A DNA stretch of 62,429 nt, filler included, from Chlamydiales bacterium (GTDB lineage Bacteria > Chlamydiota > Chlamydiia > Chlamydiales > JACRBE01): NCBI GenBank assembly GCA_016213235.1. It is 4 parts of 4 records of this genome, joined end to end, with 100 filler letters (N's around TTAATTAATTAA, not from the genome) between each part and the next. Parts side by side here need not be neighbours in the genome. Positions count along the whole stretch, not along the records: positions 1 to 21,298 come from JACRBE010000005.1; 3 more parts are not named here. One strand, 5' to 3'. The notes under the pieces were generated by a model. The model saw only the letters and a program-made list of their open reading frames with translations, was not told where the DNA came from and made no database searches. This document shows positions 1 to 42,853 of this stretch, in pieces. A program made the position numbers and the translations under genes. Every line of letters begins with the position of its first letter. Positions within the stretch are counted from its first letter, which is position 1.

Positions 1-3000
1 AATCTCCTCATTATCGATTGCTTGTAAAACGTCGGAATCAAGCTTTGCAAGTTGTGTTCCACTTAATTTGCGAATTACTTCCAAATCTTCTATACGCAAT
101 AATTTTACCTGTTCTTCCGATAAGTGCTTGTATTGATTATCTGTAATAGCGCCAAAACACGTTTTCGGTAATCGCCGGATTAATTCTTCATCCTCCATAG
201 ACGTAATTTGCTTATCACTTAAATATGCTAATTGCTCATCTGTCAGTAGTGTCAATAGAGCATCATCTGGTATTTTCTGAATGATCTCCTCATCATCGAT
301 TGCTTGTAAAACGTCGGAATCAAGCTTTGCAAGTTGTGTTCCACTTAATTTGCGAATTACTTCCAAATCTTCTATACGCAATAATTTTACTTGCTCTTGT
401 GTTATGTGTCTTATTTGTTCTTGAGCCATGTGCTTCATTTGCTCTAATGTAAAATGTGGCACGCACTCTTGCGGTAGCCTTTGCAATAAAGGGAAATCTA
501 CAACAACTGATTGCACCTGGCTGGGAGATAAACACTTCAAACTCCTTTGATTAAGCAAAGATAAACATGGTGGTGGCAATCTTACAATAAGCTCTTCGGT
601 AACAATTTGTTGAAAACGTTTTTTTACTTTCACTGCAAACATAGAATCTGCTTGTGCTGCAATGATATGCTCCCATTGCGCATCCGACGCATATGCAAGT
701 TGATTGTCAGAAAGACCTAAAAGGAGACTCGGATCCATCAGCCCCAAATGAGGGGTCATTTCAGGATCAATATATTGTATTTTTATACGAGGAACCTTTT
801 GAAGCAGCGCCGGGTCCTTTATTTGTCGATATTGATCGTCTGTAAAAGAACGAAGCATAGACTCTGGTACATGCTCTGCAGTTAACATCGCTATGCTTTC
901 ACCGGGAATAGCTCTAATACAATCATCTCTGGTTACATAAGGCACCTGAGATACTTGTATATACCTCATTTGTGACGCTTCTAAATAAGGCACCAAGTCA
1001 TTCGGTAAAGCTTTTATCTGCCCCGGTGTGTTTAGATGTTTTATACTCTCTTTATGATGTATCGTAAGTTTTGCGATCTGTTCAACGGTTAACCGCCTGA
1101 CACCCCTTCCTCTAGTGTTCTCTATGTCATCATCACGAATAGGCATCATATCCTCTGCACTTGCAGATAAATCCTCCAGCATGGAAGTTGCCTCATCTTC
1201 CTGTCCTAAGATGTTTTCTAAAACATCTCTTTGCAATAGATATCGATAAATAATAGGCTTATGGCTCTGATCTGCCTCCGCTCTTAATTTCAAAAATCGT
1301 TGTTTCAAAGCGGTGAGATCTTCTTTTGACGATACTCGTGTGTCAAGCCATACCACATACTCATTCATATGTTGCAATAAATAGTCTGTATTAGGTGATA
1401 AGATAGACATCTCGGTAAATATACGACCTACTTCAGAATCTGTTATATCAAAATTCGTGATATCCCCGGCCTGTAATTCTCCATTTGGCATAGCAAGCCA
1501 GACATCCTTCAGGTGATTATCTCTAATGTATTCTTTAAGCTTTTTTGCCTGATATTGCGATACGATAACACCACTGTGCGTATCTGATTCTTTGACGATT
1601 AAAATGTATTCGAAAGGTCTCATCTTCTGATCAAAAATTGTTATATTTTCCTCATAAGGATGTAAAAAATCCTCCGTTGCCATCAAATGGGAATGAAATA
1701 TCTTTCCGTAAGGTTTTTTATATCTTGGAGAGGAAAATGCCTCGCACATCTTATTTGCTATAGGATCTACAGCTTCCCCGCCTAATTGTTTTCTTAAGGT
1801 TGTTAAAAAGATTGCTGCATTAAAGGGATTCCCTACAGGATGAAGCTTTCTCTTGCTCTGCATAGATTCTAATTCAAGCTGCAGCTCTTGCTCCAAATTC
1901 ATATCAACTTCATTTTGCACTTCTTGCTGTACTTGTCTGGCAACTTCCATCTCCATGCCCGCTTGCGCTGCGCAATCCGCTTTCTTTTCCACAGAGAGCA
2001 ACAGATGTTGCACAAACCTTTCTTGAATATTCTCTGCATGAGCTAAAATCTCCTCTTGCTTATCACGGATTCTACCCAAAATCTCCTCTTTATCCGTTAC
2101 GCCGGCTTTTGATAACGAATCTTCCAATGCATCCAGTATACTTTTTTGTGTTAATCTCAAACTATCCATGATGGGAACAGGTTTCTGTAAACTACCTAAA
2201 TCGCGATAGGGTTCATCCTCCATTGGCGTATATAAAGCAGGATAAAAACCGCTTACAAGTTTCTTAAGCAGATCTTCATTGTCAGCGCAGGCTTCAAGCT
2301 CCATGAACGCCTTTTTAGCCTCCTCTCTTGCTGCATTGCCAAGCATTCTTGTAAACGCTTTTACCATTTTATTTGACCTCTGATGCACTTCCATCACAAT
2401 TGCCTGGTGTATAATCGAAAGTAGAACATCTTTTGATGTTTGAGGATCACCTGCATCACACCCCTGTACTAATTCAATAAACGTCTTTCCAGGAACAACA
2501 CTTGGCATGCTCTCTGCAGCATAAATAGGTATACCCATCACTATTTGTTGACCTTTGAGAAGCTGTCTCATCCTCATCCATCCTTGCGTCGCATCACTTA
2601 AGGATACAATAGGATCATAAGAAGATATATTAATTGCATCCGGCAGCTGCTTCACATCAGCGCCTGTACAATGCCTCTTGTCATAAAAGATAAAGTAGCG
2701 ACCCGGAGTAAGACCGTGTTTTCTTAATTCGTGTTCTGTTGTATCTCGAATAAACTCTGGCTCAGCCATCCCTCTTCGTATAATCGCAGGATAATCCGCT
2801 ATACTCGATCCATTGCGTCTACAAAATACAATTACTGCATCTATTGCAGGTTTCCCTGTTTTTTCAGATACTTCCTGCAATACCTCTAAAAACATCCTTG
2901 CAATATGAATGTTATCATGATTCTTAAATACAGCCCCTATATCCAACATACCACTTACCCGGTGCCAATCATCAACAGATAATTGCTTAAAACATTCCCG

Positions 3001-6000
3001 AAAAAAGGCTTCAGGTTCATCATTTGCTGTAACAACTACTTTTGTTTGTTTTGTTACAATAGCACTTACTACTTCGGGGTTTACCGTACCATTAAGGATA
3101 TTGTTACCTTCCCGTTGTAAACTCAGGTCCATGATAAGAGGATCTGGTGTTCCACTGAAACCATTGAATTCACCAAGCATAGAAACAAGCCCGATTGCGT
3201 TTCCATTTAACATCTCTTCGTGGTAGCGGACATATTTATCAATAGTCACCTGTTCAATGATAAACCGTTTGGCACAGTCCTCTTTCAATTGCGCTTTTAC
3301 TGCTTCAAGTTCCTTTACAATATCTCTTGGTAAAACACCAAAATAGCTCATACATGCTTTAGCAGGTGGTGTTTGTTCATATGGTATATGTTTATTCTTG
3401 AAAAACCAGATCGCCTGTTTATGGTACTCATCAAAAAAATCGAGGATCTGCTTATCGTCTACTCCGGCTATCACACTCGTAAGCAGTTGATACAATATCG
3501 CTTCATAGTGATATCCAAATTCATTTTGTGAGGGAGTATCTGCACAAATAAACGGAATAACCTTCCCCGTTTCCTCTTTTTTTCTGCTACGTCCAAAATT
3601 GGCATTTCCTACTTTTGTTAAAACAAAGGGAAGCATATCACAAAGAATATGTCTGGACAGTGCAATCAGATCAGCCGCTTTCTTTGCTTCATTATCTTGT
3701 GATTTGGCAAGTCCATTGCGCAGGCGTTGCACAAACTCAAGGTCTTCCCGATCAACTGTCGTCCAATCTTCTCCTTTTAATTCCCCTTCAATGGCCTCTT
3801 GAATCTCTCCTCTTATTTGTCCCGATGAATACCTTTCAAACCCTTTTCTCTCTTTTTCCGTATCTAGTTTAAGGTATTGTTTCTTTACCAATATTTTTGC
3901 TATTTTTGGAACAAGATATCTTGTAAAAAGTGAGCAAGAAAAATAACACTGCCTATTATCTTGAATTTTGATGATATCGGCAAATGCGTATTCATATTCA
4001 CTGGAATCCCCTTCCATAGGTAGGTGAAGAGCTTCGCACTCTTCTTTTGTAAATAAGGCTCTCCCTTTCTGAATAATCGATAAGATATCGCTTGCCAATC
4101 GTACATGTTTTGGATCAACTGCCTTATCATCGCCAAGAGGAAAATTAATCTCTTTCAGAATATCCAAAATGGTATGCATCTCATCGCTAAAGGCAACGCC
4201 ATCTTTTTTTAATAGCTGAAATATCTCCCTTAACACATTTAATTTCTGTTGTAATCCATCAGTAGCATTGGCAGGATGCTCTTTTGGCAGAAGAAACCAA
4301 TCTCTCAACAGTGAAAAATATTCCAGTTCTATGATTTGAAGTGTTTCCGGACAGACAAGAAGTGCCGTTGGAGAGAGAAAACGATTGGATTCCTGAATAT
4401 CCTTTAGAGTCTTTAAGATATTGGTTAGCACAGGTAACGTAAGATCTTTCCTGGCATAATCAAATGTTTCTATCTTCATGTGAAATGCATCATGAAGTGT
4501 CTTTTTAAGCTGCTCAAATAAGCTTCTGTATTGGAAAGAAGGGGTGATTAAAATAGGAATTTTTCCTTTAGAAATGGTTACCTGAAGTGTGTTTGGTGCA
4601 AAAATAGAGGTTTTTCCTTCCCCCATTCTAACCTGAGCTATTTTATTACCACGATTTACACCAAGTAATCCCTCTAAAATCTTAGCCTGGTCCGGATCTT
4701 TTCTAAACATTAAACCGGTTGTATATTCAAAAACAAGGAACTGTGGATATTCTTCTATTGTATAGTTTATACTCTGCGTGGCAATACCTATCAAATCTTC
4801 CAAATCCTTTACAACAGTGATATTGGAGACTATTCCTAATGCTTCATCCATCACCTGATCTGTAGAATTCATGCCATCTTTTTCCATATCAGCAGCAAGT
4901 GTATGGTAAGCTGAGGCCATCCTCTGTATTTGCTTTGCTTCAATCGAGCGATGTAAATACACACCTGTTTTATCATATAGTTCCTGGATATTTTCATTAC
5001 TTAGCGCCTGGTTTGCTTGATGAAAAGCCTCTGCATTTCCAAGAGAAAAGAAGAATACCAGATCAGGGATCGTAAGCTCTTTTCTATTCCCTGCAACAAC
5101 ACTGAGAGAGCAGCTTATATCTATACTTTCATCCCCTACCTTGCGATTTGCAAGCTCGAGCAACTCCCTTTCTAACCCTTGCACATCATCGCATGCATCC
5201 CTTTCCCAGTCTTTTAGTTTTTGCGCCTCTTCTTCTATTTGGAGGCGACTTAAACAAGGAAACTTAAACTTATTATCATTGGCTGCAATTTCTCTATACC
5301 CCTGTGAAAACGCAGCGATTTCCTGTTCTATTCCGGATCTATAACTATCAGACTCTTGCTCTGTTAAAGGAACGGACAGCTGCAATAGATCTGCCTCAGC
5401 ATCTATCACTCCCACCGTATATGTTGCTCTAAATCCACTCTCTTTGTTACCAAGCAACCACTCTTTTGCATTTTCTAGGGAAGAAACCCAATCGGGCTCT
5501 CGTGTGATCCAACCACAGTGCAGGGCAAGTCGTGGACTCTCTTTTAACCTGGATTCGATAGGAATAAGATGATGTACGTTTAATGTTGATTCGCCCTCTT
5601 CTTCATCGTTTCCATGATGGTAGATGCCTGATAAGCAAAGAGTGTCTTTTTCTTTAAAGCTATAATGTCTCATTACAATGGAAACCCAGTCGTTAAAATA
5701 CTCTCCTGTCCATGTAATAAAATCAGGAAATGGCAGCTTTACACTGCTAAGCAATATCCCAAGAAGAAACACTATCTCCCTATAGGAGCTCTCTTCTTTA
5801 TCATGTGGTATATTTGTTTGTTTAAGATGATTGGAAAATATATAGATGAGCTGCTTTCGTCTCTCTTTATTTTGAAGAGATTTCTGTACAAGGTCATAAA
5901 GAATATAAAATCTCTCTTCTTTGTTATAGCGTTTGTGAAGTTCTTCATTTAAACTAATGAGATCCAATGAAAGGGGGATATTGCCTAAATCGACAGCCTG

Positions 6001-9000
6001 CATATGACATAGTTTGTGGATTATATCTTCTAGTTCTATCTCCTCTTTAACATATGAATGAGCCTCTTTTCCATTAATGAATGGAAGAGATGTCATCTCA
6101 CCGGAAAGGATTTTTCTACGATTGGATAAAATGGGTAAACTAAAGTTATCTTCTTCTAGAGGCGGGATATTTTCATATATAGACAAAAGAAAGTGTTCCT
6201 CTGCCAGAGAGAGTCTATATTTTTCTTCTATATTTCCTAGCTGTCCAAGATACTCTTGATAGCACAATAACAATTTTTTTAATCGCATATCACGATCATC
6301 ATCATTTTCATCGCCTTTAAGCATTGACTGTTTATTCAACAAATATTGCTCTCGCATCTTTATCGCTATCACAGGAGGAGAAAAATCCTTCAGTCTCTCC
6401 GGCAGTTGGACGAGCATATCCAAGACTCCTCCTTGACCATCTAGTTCACACGCAGAGATCTGTGTTAAAAATACTACCACTTCCTGATATTTCCTTTGTC
6501 CAAGCATGATAAATGCTGCAGAGAGTAGTTGTTCCGTTGTGACGGGATCAAAGTGATCTCCTTTTAGAGGAATCATGGTATAGGTTCTGCTTAATGCACG
6601 TTTTTCTTCAATGTAATCATCAAACTCTTTTGGTTCCAAATTTGCATCGGCAACATCTAATTGCGCGCCATGAGCAAGCCCCGGCACAGGTCTCTTTTCA
6701 CTGTTGTAATAATTAACATTTGGCACTAGCGCCACCAACTTGTTACTTTCCATATGCTCTAAAACTAAAAAAGACTCAAAATGATCTAGAATAGATTGAG
6801 ATACATCCTCTTTTAAACGGTAATGACGATCATGCACCAGTACAAGTCCATCTTGTGTACGTTGAAAAGTAAGAGGAGAACCATCTTCATTTTTGTAACG
6901 GGTAAAAGTAACGAAAATATCAGAGCCTTTCTTTTCCTTTACGATAAACAACGGATTGTCAATATGGGCGTTTGTCTCTGCAAACGCTGTCCGATGAAGC
7001 GGCTCTAATGATCCAATTTCTTCTAGCGTATCCTGATCATTAAAGATGCAAATTCCACTATGGCCGTCAAGAATACCGTATTTTACTTTCTGTGTTGATT
7101 GATCACAAATGTAGATACCATCTTCACCTATCCAATGCGTATGATCTGTAATAACAGAAAGGGGAATATCTCCCGTCCAATGATAAGAGGATGGAGTCCC
7201 CTCAAGAGCTACATGATACTTTTGTGCAACAGCTCCTTTATTGATAGCTGTGCACCATTTGCCATGGATATTTTTTTGTAAAACGATAGGAAGAGTGCGA
7301 TAAGAATCATCTCGCTTTCCTAAAGAAGATGCAAGGACTCGAAATTTTCCAAATTTTTCGTCTTCAAAACAGATCCAGGAGCCTACCAGTCTAAATTCTT
7401 GCAGTCTATCTCCAAATATTGCTCTATATTGCTCATCATCGATGATCTTCTTTTTATCTACTGTATCATTGATCAGCTCCCCATTTTGTAATAAGACACC
7501 GGTATATAGATCTATTGTGAAGACATCCCCATCCCCATCGCTATCCCTGATTTGAAATACAAAACTGCTTTGCCGCTCTATGGTTTTATTACCGGACATT
7601 CGAATATGAAAGACATCTTCTATTATACCTGGCAACGCATCTTGAATATCTGAAGGATCAAAATCTTCCGATGATAAAAATCTTGAACCAACATAACAGA
7701 CCATTTTTTCCAAATAATCAGTATCCCAATTTGCACCTGCTTTTGATTGAATAAAAAGATAACTTTGTAACAAGTTGATTTTTTCTTCGAGAGAGCTCCC
7801 ATTACTGCTACTACTTGATGAGGAACTTTCTATTGTCTGTCTATATTGGTTTTTACCAAGAAGAAAAAGAGCTCGATGCAAATGCAAGACATATCGATCT
7901 TTTTTTTCAAGTTCCGGTATTTGCAACCATCTATCTATCTCTCCTATTCCCTCTTCTAATCTTTGTGCAAAAACATCTTCGCCTGCTCTTTTGGCAAAAG
8001 GAATTAATAAAATAGCATATTTAATAAACTCTAATACAATAGGCAAGCTCTCTGAATTAATGTTCTGTGCAAAAGTCGATTTTCCTTGTTGTATAAACTG
8101 AATAAACGCTTCCTGGAATTCCGGTAATTTTATTTCCGAGTCAAATGGCCCTAAAACCTCATACCCACCATCTCTACTTCGGATAACTGATTTAAATAAC
8201 TGATTTTCAAACGCACACCTAAACTGTTCTTCTTTAAACGCTTCTATATGATACAACCCTTCATATAACAGCTCAATTGGTCGTAATTCATCCACACTAC
8301 TGGGATGATAAAAAAAATCACACTTTTGTTGTTTAGATAACAATACGAAGGCTTCGAAATTTTCTTCCGTGTCTCCATCTTCTAATTTATCAACACCCCT
8401 TTGAAAAATGTTCCTACGAGGTATATCATTCATCACACCGCGGCTAATGTAGCTGTTATAAACTTGCCTGTTTTCAATCCTTGATTCAAGAAAGTATTTC
8501 CATCCCTTACTATAGTCAAGCCTCCCGGCTCCTACTATAAAATCACCATCGTAGAAACTAGTATCAACAGGTTCTAACCCATCATATCTATCAAGGGATA
8601 CCTTCTCTGTTTCAGACATTTGCAAGTAGTTAATAATGTGATGAGCCTGCCTTAAAAAATATAGATGAACCCATCCAAGTGTTTTAAAAATAGATTGATC
8701 AAATGGTCGTACATCACGCAACAACTCAACTAAAAGACAACTCTCTTGAGAAGCTGCCTTCCCTTTAGCATCTTTCCAGCTCATCGTCCGTCTGCTGCCA
8801 TTATAGACATCAAGCAATTCCCTTTTTCTCTCTTGTACTACCTTGTATAATATGGTTGGCAACGCCCCTTCCAAATCTTGTTGGTTAGAAAGAGGTACAG
8901 AGTAGTTAAAGCCTTCATTAAACATATCTGAAAACGTAGACCTCTGATGGTCAAAATACTCTTTAAGTTGTAACATTTTGTCATACTCATCTGGACAAAA

Positions 9001-15886: not shown

Positions 15887-18800
15887 ATGAGAAAGCATGT
15901 TCTGAACATTATTGCGTATCTGTTATTCATCACAATTAATAGCATCTGTATTGGTGCAACAGATACTATGAGCAATGCTACTAATACACAGCCTAACCTT
16001 ATTCATATCTCCGGTGGAGAAGATGCCGAGGGCTATACGATCAACTTTCAAAATGTCTCCATGCTCGAATTTATGAAATTTATTTCAAAAATCGCCAACA
16101 TCAATTTTATCTATAATCCTGGCGATTTAAATTTTGATATCAATGTTCTCTCTGATGACCCTACATCACTGGAAAATGTGATGGCCACCTTTATACAGGT
16201 GTTGAAGATAAATGGATTCAATCTGATTGAAGATGGTAATAATTTCGTTATCAATCGTAATGCAGAAATCAAACAGATACCTACTATTGTTTCAGAAGAA
16301 GAACCATACATTGGCAAGCACTTTCCTGCTTATGTAACAAGGGTATTTCATTTAAATAATGCAAATCCAGCACAGATAGCGCAGTTACTGCGTCCCATGA
16401 TTTCGAGTACTGCTATGATAGATGTTATTCCAAGCTCCAGACTGTTGATCATTACAGACATGACATCGAATATCAATCAGATAAGCAAGCTTCTTAGTAT
16501 ATTAGATCAACCGCAATCTGCCCTTCAGGTAGGATCTTATATTGTAAAAACCAATAACACAGAAAATTTAAAGATACTTGCCGAGCAAATTATTATCCCT
16601 GTAGTTGGTGATACACCAATTATTTTTGTAGCACAACCCTCTACAAATGTATTATATGTGATATCTACGCCTTATTATATCAATCTGGCAATGACGTTGC
16701 TCACAGAAATCGATTCTGCTCCAATGAATGAACAACAAAAGGTATTAACCGGAAATAATATTTTTATTTATAAATTACAATATCGCTCTGCAGATTTTGT
16801 AGAAAATTCCTTAAAAAATATTGGAGCAAATGCAGAGAGTTTAGGCTTTCTATCCAATGGATTATATGAAACAATCGCGAATGTTAAATATTTAAAATTG
16901 ACAAACTCATTATTATTTATTGGTCCAGAAGATGTTTTAGATAGAATTAAACAGCTGCTTGCACAAATTGATGTTCCCGGAAAACCAACTACCGGTAATG
17001 AACATGCTTATTTTTACATGTTTCATCCATCTCATACCACTCCTAACCAGTTAAAAATTATTTTGCTGGAAATAGCAACTAGTATGGATGAATCCGGACT
17101 CTCTGATCAGGCTCTTATCTTTACAATACAAAATGCAAAAATCATTGATGCAACGCAGTCTATTTTATTTACTGGAGACAACTCTTCTATTGAAGAAATA
17201 AAAAAATTACTCATTCAAGTAGATCAAGAGACTGCCAATTTCAAAATCAATGCTTCTTCCTTTTATATTTACAAATTGAAAAATGCCACTGATGACCAAA
17301 TGGAGAAGGCACTGCACTCCTTTGCAGCTAACTTGCAAAGTAGTCAAAATCCGGATGAATCATTAATTAATGCAATCAATAGCATGAAATGGGTGCCTGA
17401 TACCAACTCGTTAATTTTTACGGGAACAGAAAAAGCGATTGTCCAATTGCAAAATATCGTTCCTTCCTTTGATGTACAGCCACTAGAAGTACAAGCACAA
17501 CTGATGCAGCAACGCAATGCAAAAAGTGCTTTTTTTATGTATACTCCCAAAAATGTAACTCCGGAAACATTAGAAGCCTCTATCGAAGATGTTGCTCAAA
17601 AATTATCTCAATCTGGACTTGCGGACCCCAGTTTTATCACCACACTAGAAACTGCAAAATATATTCCTTCCTCAAAAACAGTGCTATTTACAGGAACTCC
17701 TTCCTCTATTGATCGTGTTCAAACACTCCTTTCTATATTAGACCAAACAAAAGAAGGTTCTAAAGTAGAAGAACAAATTTTTATTTATACTCCTAAGTAT
17801 GCAAATGTAGATACCATTCAGGATGCATTAAGTAATTTTGCAAATTCTCTACCGACCTCTGATACTACACGAAGAGTGGTTCAAAATGCAAAATGGCTGG
17901 ATAATTCCAGGTCTTTTATCTTCCAAGGATCTACAGCTTCTATTGACAAAATCAAACAAATCTTGGCTGTCACTGATGTAGATAATTTATCTAAAGAGAA
18001 TAAAACCTATTTTATCTACAAATTGAAATACATCCCAGGCGATGTTGTTATAAAAGATTTACAGCAAATGATTCGCACCTTGCAGCTAGATCCAACTCAA
18101 AAAGACTCACTTACCAACACAGTTAGTAATATCGAGTGGATTAAATCGACAAATTCTCTCTTTATCACTGGAACAAAAAATGATGTAGATGAAATTAAAA
18201 ATCTAATTGCAGAATTTGATGTTGGTGGACAAACACAAGAGTTGGAACCCACTACATTTATGATCTATAAACCTCTTTATATCTCCCCTGAACAAGCCGA
18301 GATTGATCTGCAAGCAATCGCCTCTGATTTAGAGGATTCTGGATTATCTGATGTCTCGTTAATTAGCACCATCAATAGCGTAAAAATATCGCAATCAGGC
18401 TCTGCCTTAGTCTTTACAGGAACCCAAACTAATTTAGATAAAGTAAAAACTCTTCTTTCTACCATTGATGTCTCTGCAGGGCAAGAAGGCAAAATACAAC
18501 AGGTAGGGATGTCTTCCTTTTTCATTTACAAAATAAAATATGTATCTGCAGATTTCTTAACAGGTCACCTCAATTCTATTGCTTCTCAAATGCAAGAGAT
18601 AAAAGGAGCTGATAAAGATTTTATCTCTGCTATTACAAATATGCGTTATGTGAAAGACACTAATTCGATTATTTTTGTTGGCTCCGCTGCAGCACTGGAA
18701 CAAATAAGAACATTATTAGATAAATTTGATGTTCTGCAAGAAGGACAACCACAACCAGAGATCACTCCTCGAGCACCTGGTGGTTACACCATTTACAAAC

Positions 18801-20233
18801 CAAAATATGTACCAGGGCCTGATCTCATTAATATCCTAAAAGACTTTGAACAAAATCTAAAAACATCTGGTGTAGTTCAACAAAATTTATTTGATGTCAT
18901 TGATCATTTAAAATGGATGGAAAAAACAGACTCTATTTTAATTTCAGGTACAGAGTCAGATACCATCGCAGTAAAAGATTTATTGGAAAAGTTTGATATC
19001 CCTCAAAAAGGAGCTCCCAAACCGGCCAATATTGGAACATTTGAAGATCTCAGCTTCTTAATGTACAAATTACAATATCATCAAGGGGATGAAATTCAAA
19101 CCGCATTAAAACAAATCGCAACTGATTTAAAAAAAGGAAAAGATTCAGTAGAAGCAGAAAATTTAATGAATGCGATCCAATCTCTACAATGGATTAAAGT
19201 CACGAATTCTTTAATTAGTTCCGGAGAGCCTCGCACACTTGCAAAATTAAAAGAACTCCTCTACAGCATCGATATTCCGCTTACTCAAGTATACATTGAA
19301 GTATTAGTACTGCAAACAACACTTGGAAAATTGCTTGATTTCGGTTTGCAATGGGCATCTCAAGGTAAATATAAAAACCGGTTTGCTTATGGATTTGGTA
19401 ACTTTCCTCCTGCAGGTACCGATCCTACAAATGGTACATTTGGAAATAACGTTTCGAAAATTTCCGGCACCAACGTGCCAACTGGTAGTAACATCCCATT
19501 TATAACCGGTGGGGATCTTGGAGTTATCGGAGATATCATCTTACATAAAGGAACAACCTATTTTTCTCTTGGCTCTTTAATTTCTGCAGTGGAACAAGAT
19601 AGTGATGCAACTATTGTTCTTAACCAAAAGATCGTGGCGCAAGATAATAACAATGCCCAGCTCTTTGTGGGAAGCAACATTCCATTCAGCGGATCTACCG
19701 TACAAATTATAGGACAAACGCAAACGACCTCTTCCAACTTAGAGTATCGAGATATTGGAACATCCCTCAGTATTACACCGACGATCGGAGATAATGATGT
19801 TGTAACCCTTGACATAGACCTTGAACTTTCTTCCACAACAAACAGTGGGGCCAACACCAGTTCTACCTCTTCCGTATTACCATCTAATCTTCTATCCGCA
19901 TCCACTACAGAAAAGACTACTATCCAAACCAAGTTGCTTGTACCTGACAACCATTTCGTTGTCCTTACTGGTATGATCAATGATAGCACCATCCATGATC
20001 GTGCAGGCATACCTTGTTTAGGTGGACTACCTGTAATTGGAGTTGCGTTTAGCCAAAATAACTCGACAAAAGTAAAACAGAACGTAATAATGTTCCTTAA
20101 ACCAACCATTATTAAATCCAGTGACATTTTCAAACACATTACAGACAGGCAAGAACAACTCTTCAGAGAGCAAGCAGATATGGAAGCTTATGATGCGGGC
20201 ATTAATCTTGTATCTACGCCAGATGACAAATAA
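15887..20233 (+). CDS. sctC: T3SS secretin SctC/CdsC with expanded periplasmic N-domain repeats
   Basis: Signal peptide, N0 domain (YTINFQNVSMLEFMKFISK), repeated N3-like domains, C-terminal secretin domain (QVYIEVLVL; YRDIGTSLSITPTI; GIPCLGGLPVIG). Confidence 0.93.
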   Translation: MRKHVLNIIAYLLFITINSICIGATDTMSNATNTQPNLIHISGGEDAEGYTINFQNVSMLEFMKFISKIANINFIYNPGDLNFDINVLSDDPTSLENVMATFIQVLKINGFNLIEDGNNFVINRNAEIKQIPTIVSEEEPYIGKHFPAYVTRVFHLNNANPAQIAQLLRPMISSTAMIDVIPSSRLLIITDMTSNINQISKLLSILDQPQSALQVGSYIVKTNNTENLKILAEQIIIPVVGDTPIIFVAQPSTNVLYVISTPYYINLAMTLLTEIDSAPMNEQQKVLTGNNIFIYKLQYRSADFVENSLKNIGANAESLGFLSNGLYETIANVKYLKLTNSLLFIGPEDVLDRIKQLLAQIDVPGKPTTGNEHAYFYMFHPSHTTPNQLKIILLEIATSMDESGLSDQALIFTIQNAKIIDATQSILFTGDNSSIEEIKKLLIQVDQETANFKINASSFYIYKLKNATDDQMEKALHSFAANLQSSQNPDESLINAINSMKWVPDTNSLIFTGTEKAIVQLQNIVPSFDVQPLEVQAQLMQQRNAKSAFFMYTPKNVTPETLEASIEDVAQKLSQSGLADPSFITTLETAKYIPSSKTVLFTGTPSSIDRVQTLLSILDQTKEGSKVEEQIFIYTPKYANVDTIQDALSNFANSLPTSDTTRRVVQNAKWLDNSRSFIFQGSTASIDKIKQILAVTDVDNLSKENKTYFIYKLKYIPGDVVIKDLQQMIRTLQLDPTQKDSLTNTVSNIEWIKSTNSLFITGTKNDVDEIKNLIAEFDVGGQTQELEPTTFMIYKPLYISPEQAEIDLQAIASDLEDSGLSDVSLISTINSVKISQSGSALVFTGTQTNLDKVKTLLSTIDVSAGQEGKIQQVGMSSFFIYKIKYVSADFLTGHLNSIASQMQEIKGADKDFISAITNMRYVKDTNSIIFVGSAAALEQIRTLLDKFDVLQEGQPQPEITPRAPGGYTIYKPKYVPGPDLINILKDFEQNLKTSGVVQQNLFDVIDHLKWMEKTDSILISGTESDTIAVKDLLEKFDIPQKGAPKPANIGTFEDLSFLMYKLQYHQGDEIQTALKQIATDLKKGKDSVEAENLMNAIQSLQWIKVTNSLISSGEPRTLAKLKELLYSIDIPLTQVYIEVLVLQTTLGKLLDFGLQWASQGKYKNRFAYGFGNFPPAGTDPTNGTFGNNVSKISGTNVPTGSNIPFITGGDLGVIGDIILHKGTTYFSLGSLISAVEQDSDATIVLNQKIVAQDNNNAQLFVGSNIPFSGSTVQIIGQTQTTSSNLEYRDIGTSLSITPTIGDNDVVTLDIDLELSSTTNSGANTSSTSSVLPSNLLSASTTEKTTIQTKLLVPDNHFVVLTGMINDSTIHDRAGIPCLGGLPVIGVAFSQNNSTKVKQNVIMFLKPTIIKSSDIFKHITDRQEQLFREQADMEAYDAGINLVSTPDDK

Positions 20234-21176
20234 AAAAGAGTGGATCTTGTTTCCACTCTTTTTAGTATTAGTCAGCTGTGAAAAAGTATCTGATAAAATC
20301 GAGCCTCAAATTACCTATACTATTCACGAAAATCAAATCAGTCGTTTGCAACCTGCATTTCCTTCCCTTACCATACATGAAAAAAAAGAGGAGTGGGGAA
20401 AAGAATATCTCATTGGGATGGCCTTTGCTAAAGAGCTCGATTTATACCGAGCAATTACAGCATTAAAAAGAGCTAATATCCTGATACCAGAGGATTTCAT
20501 TTATCGAAGAGCGGAGATTCAATATTATATTTTACTATGTTATTACCTGGGTGGAAAATATGAAGAAGCAATTGATACCTTTGATAAATCAGAGCTGTCT
20601 CACGTTTCTGACCATTTTCCAACATATAAAGATCTGCTAGTCATGTTATATGAATGTTTCTTAAAAACAGAGCAGACAGAAAAAGCTCAATTTATTTTAC
20701 AGCTGCTTAAAGAAAAAGATCCTGCTGTATCAGAAAAGCTATCCTTTCATACAGCTATTTCTCATGCCAATTTTCAAGACATATTGGCTAATGCAGATAC
20801 AAGCCCAATTGCACAAGACTTTAAAGCTGTTTCTTCCCAATTTAAAAAGGAAAAAAAATCGACATTTGCGGCACAATTTCTCAATGCAACTATTCCTGGA
20901 GCCGGTTTTCTATATGTAGGACAAAAACAATCTGCGCTTACCTCGTTTTTATTAAATGGGTTATTTATCGGAGCTGCTACCCACTTTTTTATGCATGGCA
21001 ATATTGCAGCAGGGCTTATTACAACAAGTTTTGAAACAGGATGGTATTTTGGTGGCATCTATGGAGCTGGAGAAGCCGCTAAATTATACAATGAGCGCAT
21101 TTATGAAACAAAAGCGCATCAGTTTATGCAACAAAAAAAATTATTTCCCATTTTCATGATAGAACATGCTTTTTAA
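20223..21176 (+). CDS. TPR-like lipoprotein with C-terminal membrane segment
   Basis: Likely start MTNKKEWILFPLFLVLVSC (lipobox); TPR-like helices; hydrophobic NATIPGAGFLYVGQ...LNGLFIGA. Confidence 0.7.
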   Translation: MTNKKEWILFPLFLVLVSCEKVSDKIEPQITYTIHENQISRLQPAFPSLTIHEKKEEWGKEYLIGMAFAKELDLYRAITALKRANILIPEDFIYRRAEIQYYILLCYYLGGKYEEAIDTFDKSELSHVSDHFPTYKDLLVMLYECFLKTEQTEKAQFILQLLKEKDPAVSEKLSFHTAISHANFQDILANADTSPIAQDFKAVSSQFKKEKKSTFAAQFLNATIPGAGFLYVGQKQSALTSFLLNGLFIGAATHFFMHGNIAAGLITTSFETGWYFGGIYGAGEAAKLYNERIYETKAHQFMQQKKLFPIFMIEHAF

Positions 21177-21298: not shown

Positions 21299-21398
21299 NN
21301 NNNNNNNNNNNNNNNNNNNNNNNNNNNNNNNNNNNNNNNNNNTTAATTAATTAANNNNNNNNNNNNNNNNNNNNNNNNNNNNNNNNNNNNNNNNNNNN
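21299..21398. other. Artificial contig linker
   Basis: 44 N + TTAATTAATTAA (stops in all frames) + 44 N. Confidence 0.99.
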
Positions 21399-42753: not shown

Positions 42754-42853
42754 NNNNNNNNNNNNNNNNNNNNNNNNNNNNNNNNNNNNNNNNNNNNTTA
42801 ATTAATTAANNNNNNNNNNNNNNNNNNNNNNNNNNNNNNNNNNNNNNNNNNNN
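42754..42853. other. Artificial contig linker
   Basis: N-run with TTAATTAATTAA. Confidence 0.99.

Follow-up and report, generated by a model that had tools for sequence, protein, structure and literature searches.

The type III secretion system (T3SS) secretin CdsC of Chlamydiales bacterium GCA_016213235.1 contains ten tandem N3-like units in front of its barrel, and within the chlamydial clade to which this genome belongs the number of these units varies together with the length of CdsP, the likely needle ruler coded in the same operon. The window, i.e., the whole stretch of DNA analysed (62,429 nucleotides (nt)), is a scaffold of four contigs with N gaps at 21299-21398, 42754-42853 and 59854-59953, across which gene order is not real synteny; the cdsC open reading frame (ORF) is free of N and lies entirely inside one contig. 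The architecture of CdsC is N0-N1-N2-(N3)x10-barrel, with the ten units named U1 to U10:

15887..20233, + strand: cdsC/sctC, type III secretin of GspD-like type, 1448 amino acids (aa) (ORF and family matches)
16040..16246, + strand: N0 domain, aa 52-120 (Pfam)
16337..16519, + strand: N1 domain
16520..16740, + strand: N2 domain, bounds approximate (partial Pfam match at 16610-16726)
16754..16972, + strand: U1 (unit hidden Markov model (HMM), structure model)
17006..17224, + strand: U2, subtype A (unit HMM, unit alignment)
17255..17473, + strand: U3 (unit HMM, unit alignment)
17525..17743, + strand: U4, subtype A (unit HMM, unit alignment)
17771..17977, + strand: U5, shortened (unit HMM, unit alignment)
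18002..18220, + strand: U6 (unit HMM, unit alignment)
18251..18469, + strand: U7, subtype A (unit HMM, unit alignment, structure model)
18512..18730, + strand: U8, in the conserved barrel-proximal block (homologue comparison, structure model)
18779..18997, + strand: U9, in the conserved barrel-proximal block (homologue comparison, structure model)
19049..19273, + strand: U10, occupying the N3 position next to the barrel (homologue comparison, structure superposition)
19277..20233, + strand: secretin beta-barrel and C-terminal helices (Pfam, structure model)

An earlier note on this DNA had claimed ten tandem N3-like units; indeed, the 1448-aa ORF contains every one of these motifs in the order given there, starting at aa 291, 375, 458, 548, 630, 707, 790, 877, 966 and 1056 (nt 16757-19052), successive starts being 77-90 aa apart, and the array covers aa 290-1129. 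Pfam recognizes N0 (aa 52-120), eight Secretin_N stretches and the Secretin domain (aa 1234-1410; the PF00263 barrel match scores 117.8 bits), and an HMM made from the units recovers exactly ten of them. The gene follows cdsP, cdsQ and a kinase of the cdsD-cdsN operon, as is the case for chlamydial CdsC; we take the locus to be the chlamydial cdsD-cdsC one and use the customary gene names, those of CdsD, SctQ and the secretin being supported by family matches. A separate, normal GspD gene is present in this genome in a gspD-E-F-type operon, while the neighbours of CdsC are T3SS genes. The proteobacterial SctC used as baseline in the earlier note has to be replaced by chlamydial CdsC, which is GspD-like with N0-N1-N2-N3 (PMC3459982): CdsC scores 105 bits against TIGR02516 (proteobacterial SctC), below the curated cut-off of 238, and contains N2, which the N0-N1-N3 order of SctC lacks; against TIGR02517 (GspD) it scores 366 bits, above the curated cut-off of 351, the score being inflated by the repeats.

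Aligned with each other, the ten units give z-scores over shuffles of 5.7-30.9; in the same test N1 against the units gives -0.7 to 11 and N2 at most 3.5. Two subtypes exist, one comprising U2, U4 and U7 (scores 137-152) and the other U1, U3, U6, U8, U9 and U10, so that the rough alternation of two unit types proposed before holds only in part: U9, despite its P-type motif, has its best score with U6, while U5 is degenerate. An assembly artefact was considered and rejected, because the units of this CdsC are at most 40% identical to each other (the value of the closest pair), and because an independently assembled relative, P0002 (61% identical), keeps ten units in identical order; moreover, the array has no N and lies in one contig.

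Every unit modelled (U1 and U7-U10, five of the ten) is predicted to take the secretin N-domain (KH-like) fold, as the earlier note had proposed. The U1 model has a predicted local distance difference test score (pLDDT) of 90.7 and the order beta-alpha-(alpha)-beta-beta-alpha, and the profile of the units matches Escherichia coli GspD (5wq7) with E 9.8e-10; a Foldseek search with the U1 model has secretins as its top rows, every E-value being above 0.001. In a model from U7 to the C-terminus (pLDDT 79.5, predicted template modelling score (pTM) 0.44) the fold recurs in all four units, and U10 with the barrel superposes on N3 and barrel of GspD (5w68) with Z 18.8 and a root-mean-square deviation (rmsd) of 4.2 Å over 318 residues. 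Individual units match N-domains of XcpQ, InvG, EscC and PilQ at Z 7-9; compared with the N-domains of GspD, they hold an additional short helix.

This window represents a typical clade member, and the feature is clade-wide; the idea that ten units are an oddity of this genome was rejected, the whole clade being expanded. The 120 homologues listed of 381, from a search biased toward long proteins, have 7-23 units each with ten as the mode (35/120), and this lowers the novelty in sequence terms, as the earlier note itself had allowed. A survey of 400 genomes of the phylum gave a bimodal distribution over families, with 0-2 matches in 29 of them (165 genomes) and, in 15 others, at least three unit matches in 230 of 235 genomes. 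The survey scored at most 14 candidates per genome and may exceed the CdsC count by one; for this reason the statistics are based throughout on units counted in whole ORFs. As the families were split by the unit count itself, the independent test is the operon tree. For this, 136 loci around cdsN and the present one were collected, and 100 of these 137 (50 single-unit, 50 expanded) were usable, both CdsC and the gene in the sctP position being complete; the remaining 37 were dropped, CdsC being cut or outside 20 kb, or a whole ruler being absent. In the tree of six operon proteins, one of which is the CdsC barrel, the 50 expanded loci form a single clade with support 1.0, and this phylogeny indicates that the expansion arose once, in a clade including Simkania and Rhabdochlamydia. 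Named members are Simkania sp. and Candidatus (Ca.) Amphrikana, with 14 units each, Ca. Neptunochlamydia (8-13), Ca. Acheromyda (9), Ca. Algichlamydia (8) and Ca. Rhabdochlamydia (7); across the expanded clade, counts are 4-21 in whole loci and up to 23 among protein matches. The remaining sampled chlamydial families have one N3 unit in CdsC.

The comparison of homologues indicates that the middle units are still gained and lost, N0-N2 and the final units being constant. Relatives contain recent duplications of two units (92-93% identity) and of one unit (93-96% identity); U10 is the best match of the final unit in 119 of 119 homologues, the U8-U9-U10 ending is found in most of the 17 homologues examined, and the distance from N0 to U1 is constant (233-245 aa) across the 50 expanded loci. 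Only 49 aa precede N0 in the present CdsC, a segment that is probably signal-peptide-like, and the expanded clade lacks the hydrophilic extension that other chlamydiae have at the N-terminus; pre-N0 length is 25-108 aa (median 52) in the expanded loci and 51-1768 aa (median 155) in the single-unit genomes, so that a hydrophilic N-terminal extension is no constant trait of the CdsC family. Some single-N3 lineages (L126, L083, L098 and L125) lengthen CdsC in other ways, with up to 1768 aa before N0 and inserts of up to 651 aa between N0 and N3, versus about 240 aa.

The gene that varies with the array is the following:

11236..12801, + strand: cdsP/sctP-like ruler, 521 aa, with a short N-terminal motif, a Pro/Thr-rich internal segment and a putative C-terminal T3S4-like domain

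It likely codes for the CdsP needle ruler, as suggested by its position between sctO and sctQ in the locus gene order and by remote sequence similarity. The C-terminal domain aligns with the Chlamydia DUF5421 family (hhalign 95.6%, E 1.2e-8), Pfam Flg_hook (FliK) matches 7 of 65 CdsP members (best E 1.4e-4), and the language-model features (Atlas) have SPAN, Flg_hook and HpaP clusters as top matches, at 0.87-0.91. A PDB profile search with the C-terminal domain gave no match under E 0.1, and NCBIfam no family match for CdsP. Each CdsP was taken to start with its first ATG, which probably makes at least two of the proteins too short, and among the 50 single-unit loci there are 17 whose CdsP was assigned by position.

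In the 50 expanded loci, CdsP length follows unit number with a Spearman coefficient of 0.82 and a slope of 24.1 +/- 2.4 aa per unit: CdsP has 315-436 aa with seven units, 396-553 with ten, 554-599 with 14 and 670-700 with 21. The relation holds when kinship is taken into account, since independent contrasts within the expanded clade give r 0.82 (p 6e-13; 0.79 with equal branches) and 0.78 once the two 21-unit genomes are removed, and nine of the 11 sister pairs that are informative are concordant for CdsP length and unit number. The within-family r is 0.84, a value reached by none of 10,000 within-family permutations, and the per-unit slope is tight inside four families. The gain is confined to the internal segment (slope 21.9), the ends being constant at 23-33 aa for the N-terminal part and 107-129 aa for the C-terminal one, as measured in the 36 of 50 loci with a locatable motif. 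Among 17 further named loci (of 80; usable and non-duplicate) rho is 0.86, uncorrected for kinship. A named Simkania sp. record with 14 units has a CdsP of 579 aa.

Of 50 expanded loci, 27 have a second, short gene with a T3S4 domain (about 170-245 aa; e.g., L012 4522-5208) after cdsP, compared with 0 of 60 single-unit loci; it is absent from the locus of this genome, and its length is unrelated to unit number. The ruler-position genes of two single-unit genomes, L128 and L135, code for 765 and 735 aa, and would predict long exposed needles.

CdsD, CdsQ, the kinase, the second T3S4 gene and GC content show no trend with unit number in the expanded loci. The periplasmic part of CdsD has 272-280 aa in the expanded loci (62 measured) and 270-305 aa in the single-unit ones (47 measured), and GspD, the secretin of the type II secretion system (T2SS), measures 730-806 aa in 47 of the 49 expanded genomes searched (rho 0.08 versus unit number; two were dropped for an internal stop and a contig end). 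A lengthened CdsD, which the earlier note had suggested looking for in its SctD, and a lengthened GspD were thus both rejected. Since CdsD, CdsQ, the kinase and GspD are flat, the added length is peculiar to the secretin of the T3SS and to the ruler.

The explanation that we favour, and regard as fairly probable, is that the units form additional stacked rings and thereby lengthen the basal body, which would sit where the periplasm bulges locally, with the ruler retuned so that the needle still exits. Each unit would oligomerise into a ring, like the N-domains of GspD and PilQ; N0/N1 would keep their docking site on the CdsD ring, which is unchanged, and the extra rings would lie between this dock and the barrel. 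Because each such ring lengthens the needle path, the needle would travel further before its exit and the ruler would need to grow with every unit. At about 3 nm per ring, or at the about 4.6 nm per unit to which the observed slope corresponds with about 0.19 nm per ruler residue, nine extra rings would add about 25-40 nm to the 34 nm of C. trachomatis, giving a basal body near 60-75 nm here. The separation of the membranes would be local, around the T3SS, comparable to the T3SS pole of the C. trachomatis elementary body, and not cell-wide; the widening is probably local because GspD is unchanged. In a more specific form of this proposal, for which we see even chances, shaft length (about 45 to >100 nm) would be set digitally by ring number, the secretin would prop the membranes apart and a co-evolving ruler would measure from the inner-membrane gate, making these the longest T3SS basal bodies known and the clade a natural series against which the molecular-ruler model could be calibrated. 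In the published record, needle length is dictated by ruler length (PMC6140923), the six N-rings of Thermus PilQ (350 Å) span a wide periplasm (PMC5745081), the C. trachomatis periplasm measures 13.8 nm and locally 28.6 nm at the T3SS pole (PMC4336559), and C. trachomatis has a basal body 34 nm long, its 283-aa CdsP being treated as a ruler (Nans 2015, PMC4682100).

Several observations weigh against stacked rings matched by the ruler. The monomer model lacks GspD-like stacking (pTM 0.44; multi-unit alignments have an rmsd of 11-31 Å), and the linkers between units, of 10-15 aa, have low pLDDT and no fixed inter-unit geometry; the longer conduit proposed in the earlier note is backed indirectly by the ruler, whereas ring stacking was not reproduced. 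The identity of CdsP is based on position and remote homology, without a PDB match, and the ruler slope is about 1.5 times the ring rise on the scales used above. The rulers of single-unit genomes have 213-765 aa (median 317), and several genomes with 7-9 units have rulers of 315-355 aa, no longer than the single-unit ones; the clade line, if extended down to a single unit, predicts 244 aa, near the lower limit of the single-unit values. Over all 100 loci the contrast r is only 0.50 (0.36 with equal branches), and the sign agrees in just 28 of 40 contrasts of the expanded clade. A CT668-like gene also trends weakly (r 0.34, 0.6 aa per unit), a trend that vanishes without the 21-unit pair. Ruler length must also be shaped by the length of the exposed needle or by other inserts.

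The loose linkers, the short rulers of some 7-9-unit genomes and the elasticity of basal bodies through secretin N-domains, as described in PMC4682100 and PMC3728920, would also suit a compliant, telescoping or folded-back sleeve (a spring or radial collar) in a modestly longer body, with ruler and array co-varying under a shared pressure, e.g., needle reach in a given host. We consider such a sleeve unlikely, given how tightly ruler length scales with each unit, both inside four families and in the contrasts, the restriction of the extra ruler length to the measuring segment, and the constant distance from N0 to U1. The earlier note had offered an unusually wide periplasm as one option, which for the clade would mean a whole periplasm that is wide and that the secretin merely follows; the trait is common to all 15 expanded families, and Thermus PilQ offers a precedent (PMC5745081), but neither periplasmic CdsD nor GspD lengthens, the latter staying at 730-806 aa even in 21-unit genomes, which makes a general widening improbable. 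Counts of 4-21 among relatives and recent duplications 92-96% identical could point to neutral, tolerated repeat slippage, with an array devoid of a selected role and a ruler that is compensatory or only incidentally correlated. This would be very improbable, because no intact CdsC of the clade has fewer than four units among the 50 usable loci, because the present units are old (at most 40% identical) and yet keep fold and frame, and because a matched ruler change implies a physical effect on length in any case.

If the stacked-ring reading is true, the clade holds machines two to three times longer than usual, tuned by domain count; the usual figures for an injectisome are a basal body of about 30-35 nm and three or four N-domains in the secretin. 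That ruler length keeps step with ring number is predicted by the ruler model if the ruler spans the whole path from export gate to tip, and is no obvious prediction of the timer or inner-rod models; this makes a debated mechanism testable by imaging, and the unit count would be a sequence-only predictor of envelope geometry in uncultured chlamydiae. Environmental chlamydiae, including Simkania, were reportedly imaged with cryo-electron tomography (cryo-ET) by Pilhofer in 2014.

The protein is a clade-wide variant of a known machine, and the coupling to the ruler is its new, surprising and testable part. No published description was found of an N3 expansion in chlamydial CdsC or of a link to the ruler, in a search that did not extend to environmental-chlamydia cryo-ET or to the Nans 2015 and Abby 2012 supplements. 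C. trachomatis CdsC (921 aa; PMC4682100 and PMC3459982) shares the operon position after cdsP-cdsQ-kinase and the order N0-N1-N2-N3, but has a single N3, compared with 4-23 in the expanded clade; Chlamydia CdsC also has a hydrophilic N-terminal domain of ~250 aa that the present protein lacks, and the C. trachomatis ruler has 283 aa (PMC4682100), versus 521 here. GspD/PulD/XcpQ (TIGR02517) have the domain order, unit fold and N3-barrel packing in common with CdsC, but belong to the T2SS, whereas this CdsC lies in a T3SS locus and has the extra short helix in each unit. Thermus thermophilus PilQ, among the largest secretins characterised, is likewise lengthened by extra N-domains, across a wide periplasm (PMC5745081); it serves a type IV pilus and has six rings, while CdsC has 13 N-domains including N0, in a number that varies among relatives and is coupled to the ruler. 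YscP, InvJ and FliK combine a disordered internal segment with a C-terminal T3S4-like domain, as CdsP probably does; in the available parts of PMC6140923 and PMC6972891 their length is tied to the needle outside the cell, and no link to secretin domain count was found there. Long arrays are not unique to chlamydiae, as the metagenomic GspD-like proteins P0282, P0284 and P0290 have 27, 14 and 34 Secretin_N stretches, respectively; the chlamydial unit HMM finds 0 units in them, which argues for an independent expansion. P0290 has 3767 aa and includes the barrel.

The other genes of the locus in the window are:

13029..14198, + strand: cdsQ/sctQ (TIGR02551 above cut-off)
14202..15809, + strand: Ser/Thr kinase, pkn5 position (family match)
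20223..21176, + strand: candidate pilotin, a putative lipoprotein with tetratricopeptide repeats (TPR) coded immediately downstream of cdsC

The kinase is presumably pkn5, by position. The remaining operon genes (cdsD, cdsN, cdsO and those between) are found on a second contig of this assembly, which overlaps the present one. Outside family f4, 63 of 69 loci have a TPR putative lipoprotein of ~320 aa after cdsC, compared with 0 of 10 loci in f4; it has a lipobox-like motif in 35 of the 63 and may be a pilotin. Nans 2015 (PMC4682100) notes no pilotin in the C. trachomatis T3SS operons.

The T3SS operon is interrupted between cdsO and cdsP by a giant antisense ORF of about 4000 aa (window 1-10833, - strand), which continues on contig C42 of G000 (L218 2-1372) and contains DUF3638 and C-terminal tandem repeats. 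Its N-terminal His/Asn and Cys motifs presumably indicate a papain-like peptidase; the putative peptidase region gave no PDB match. In the nearest relative, a 244-aa ORF is found where the giant ORF stands here.

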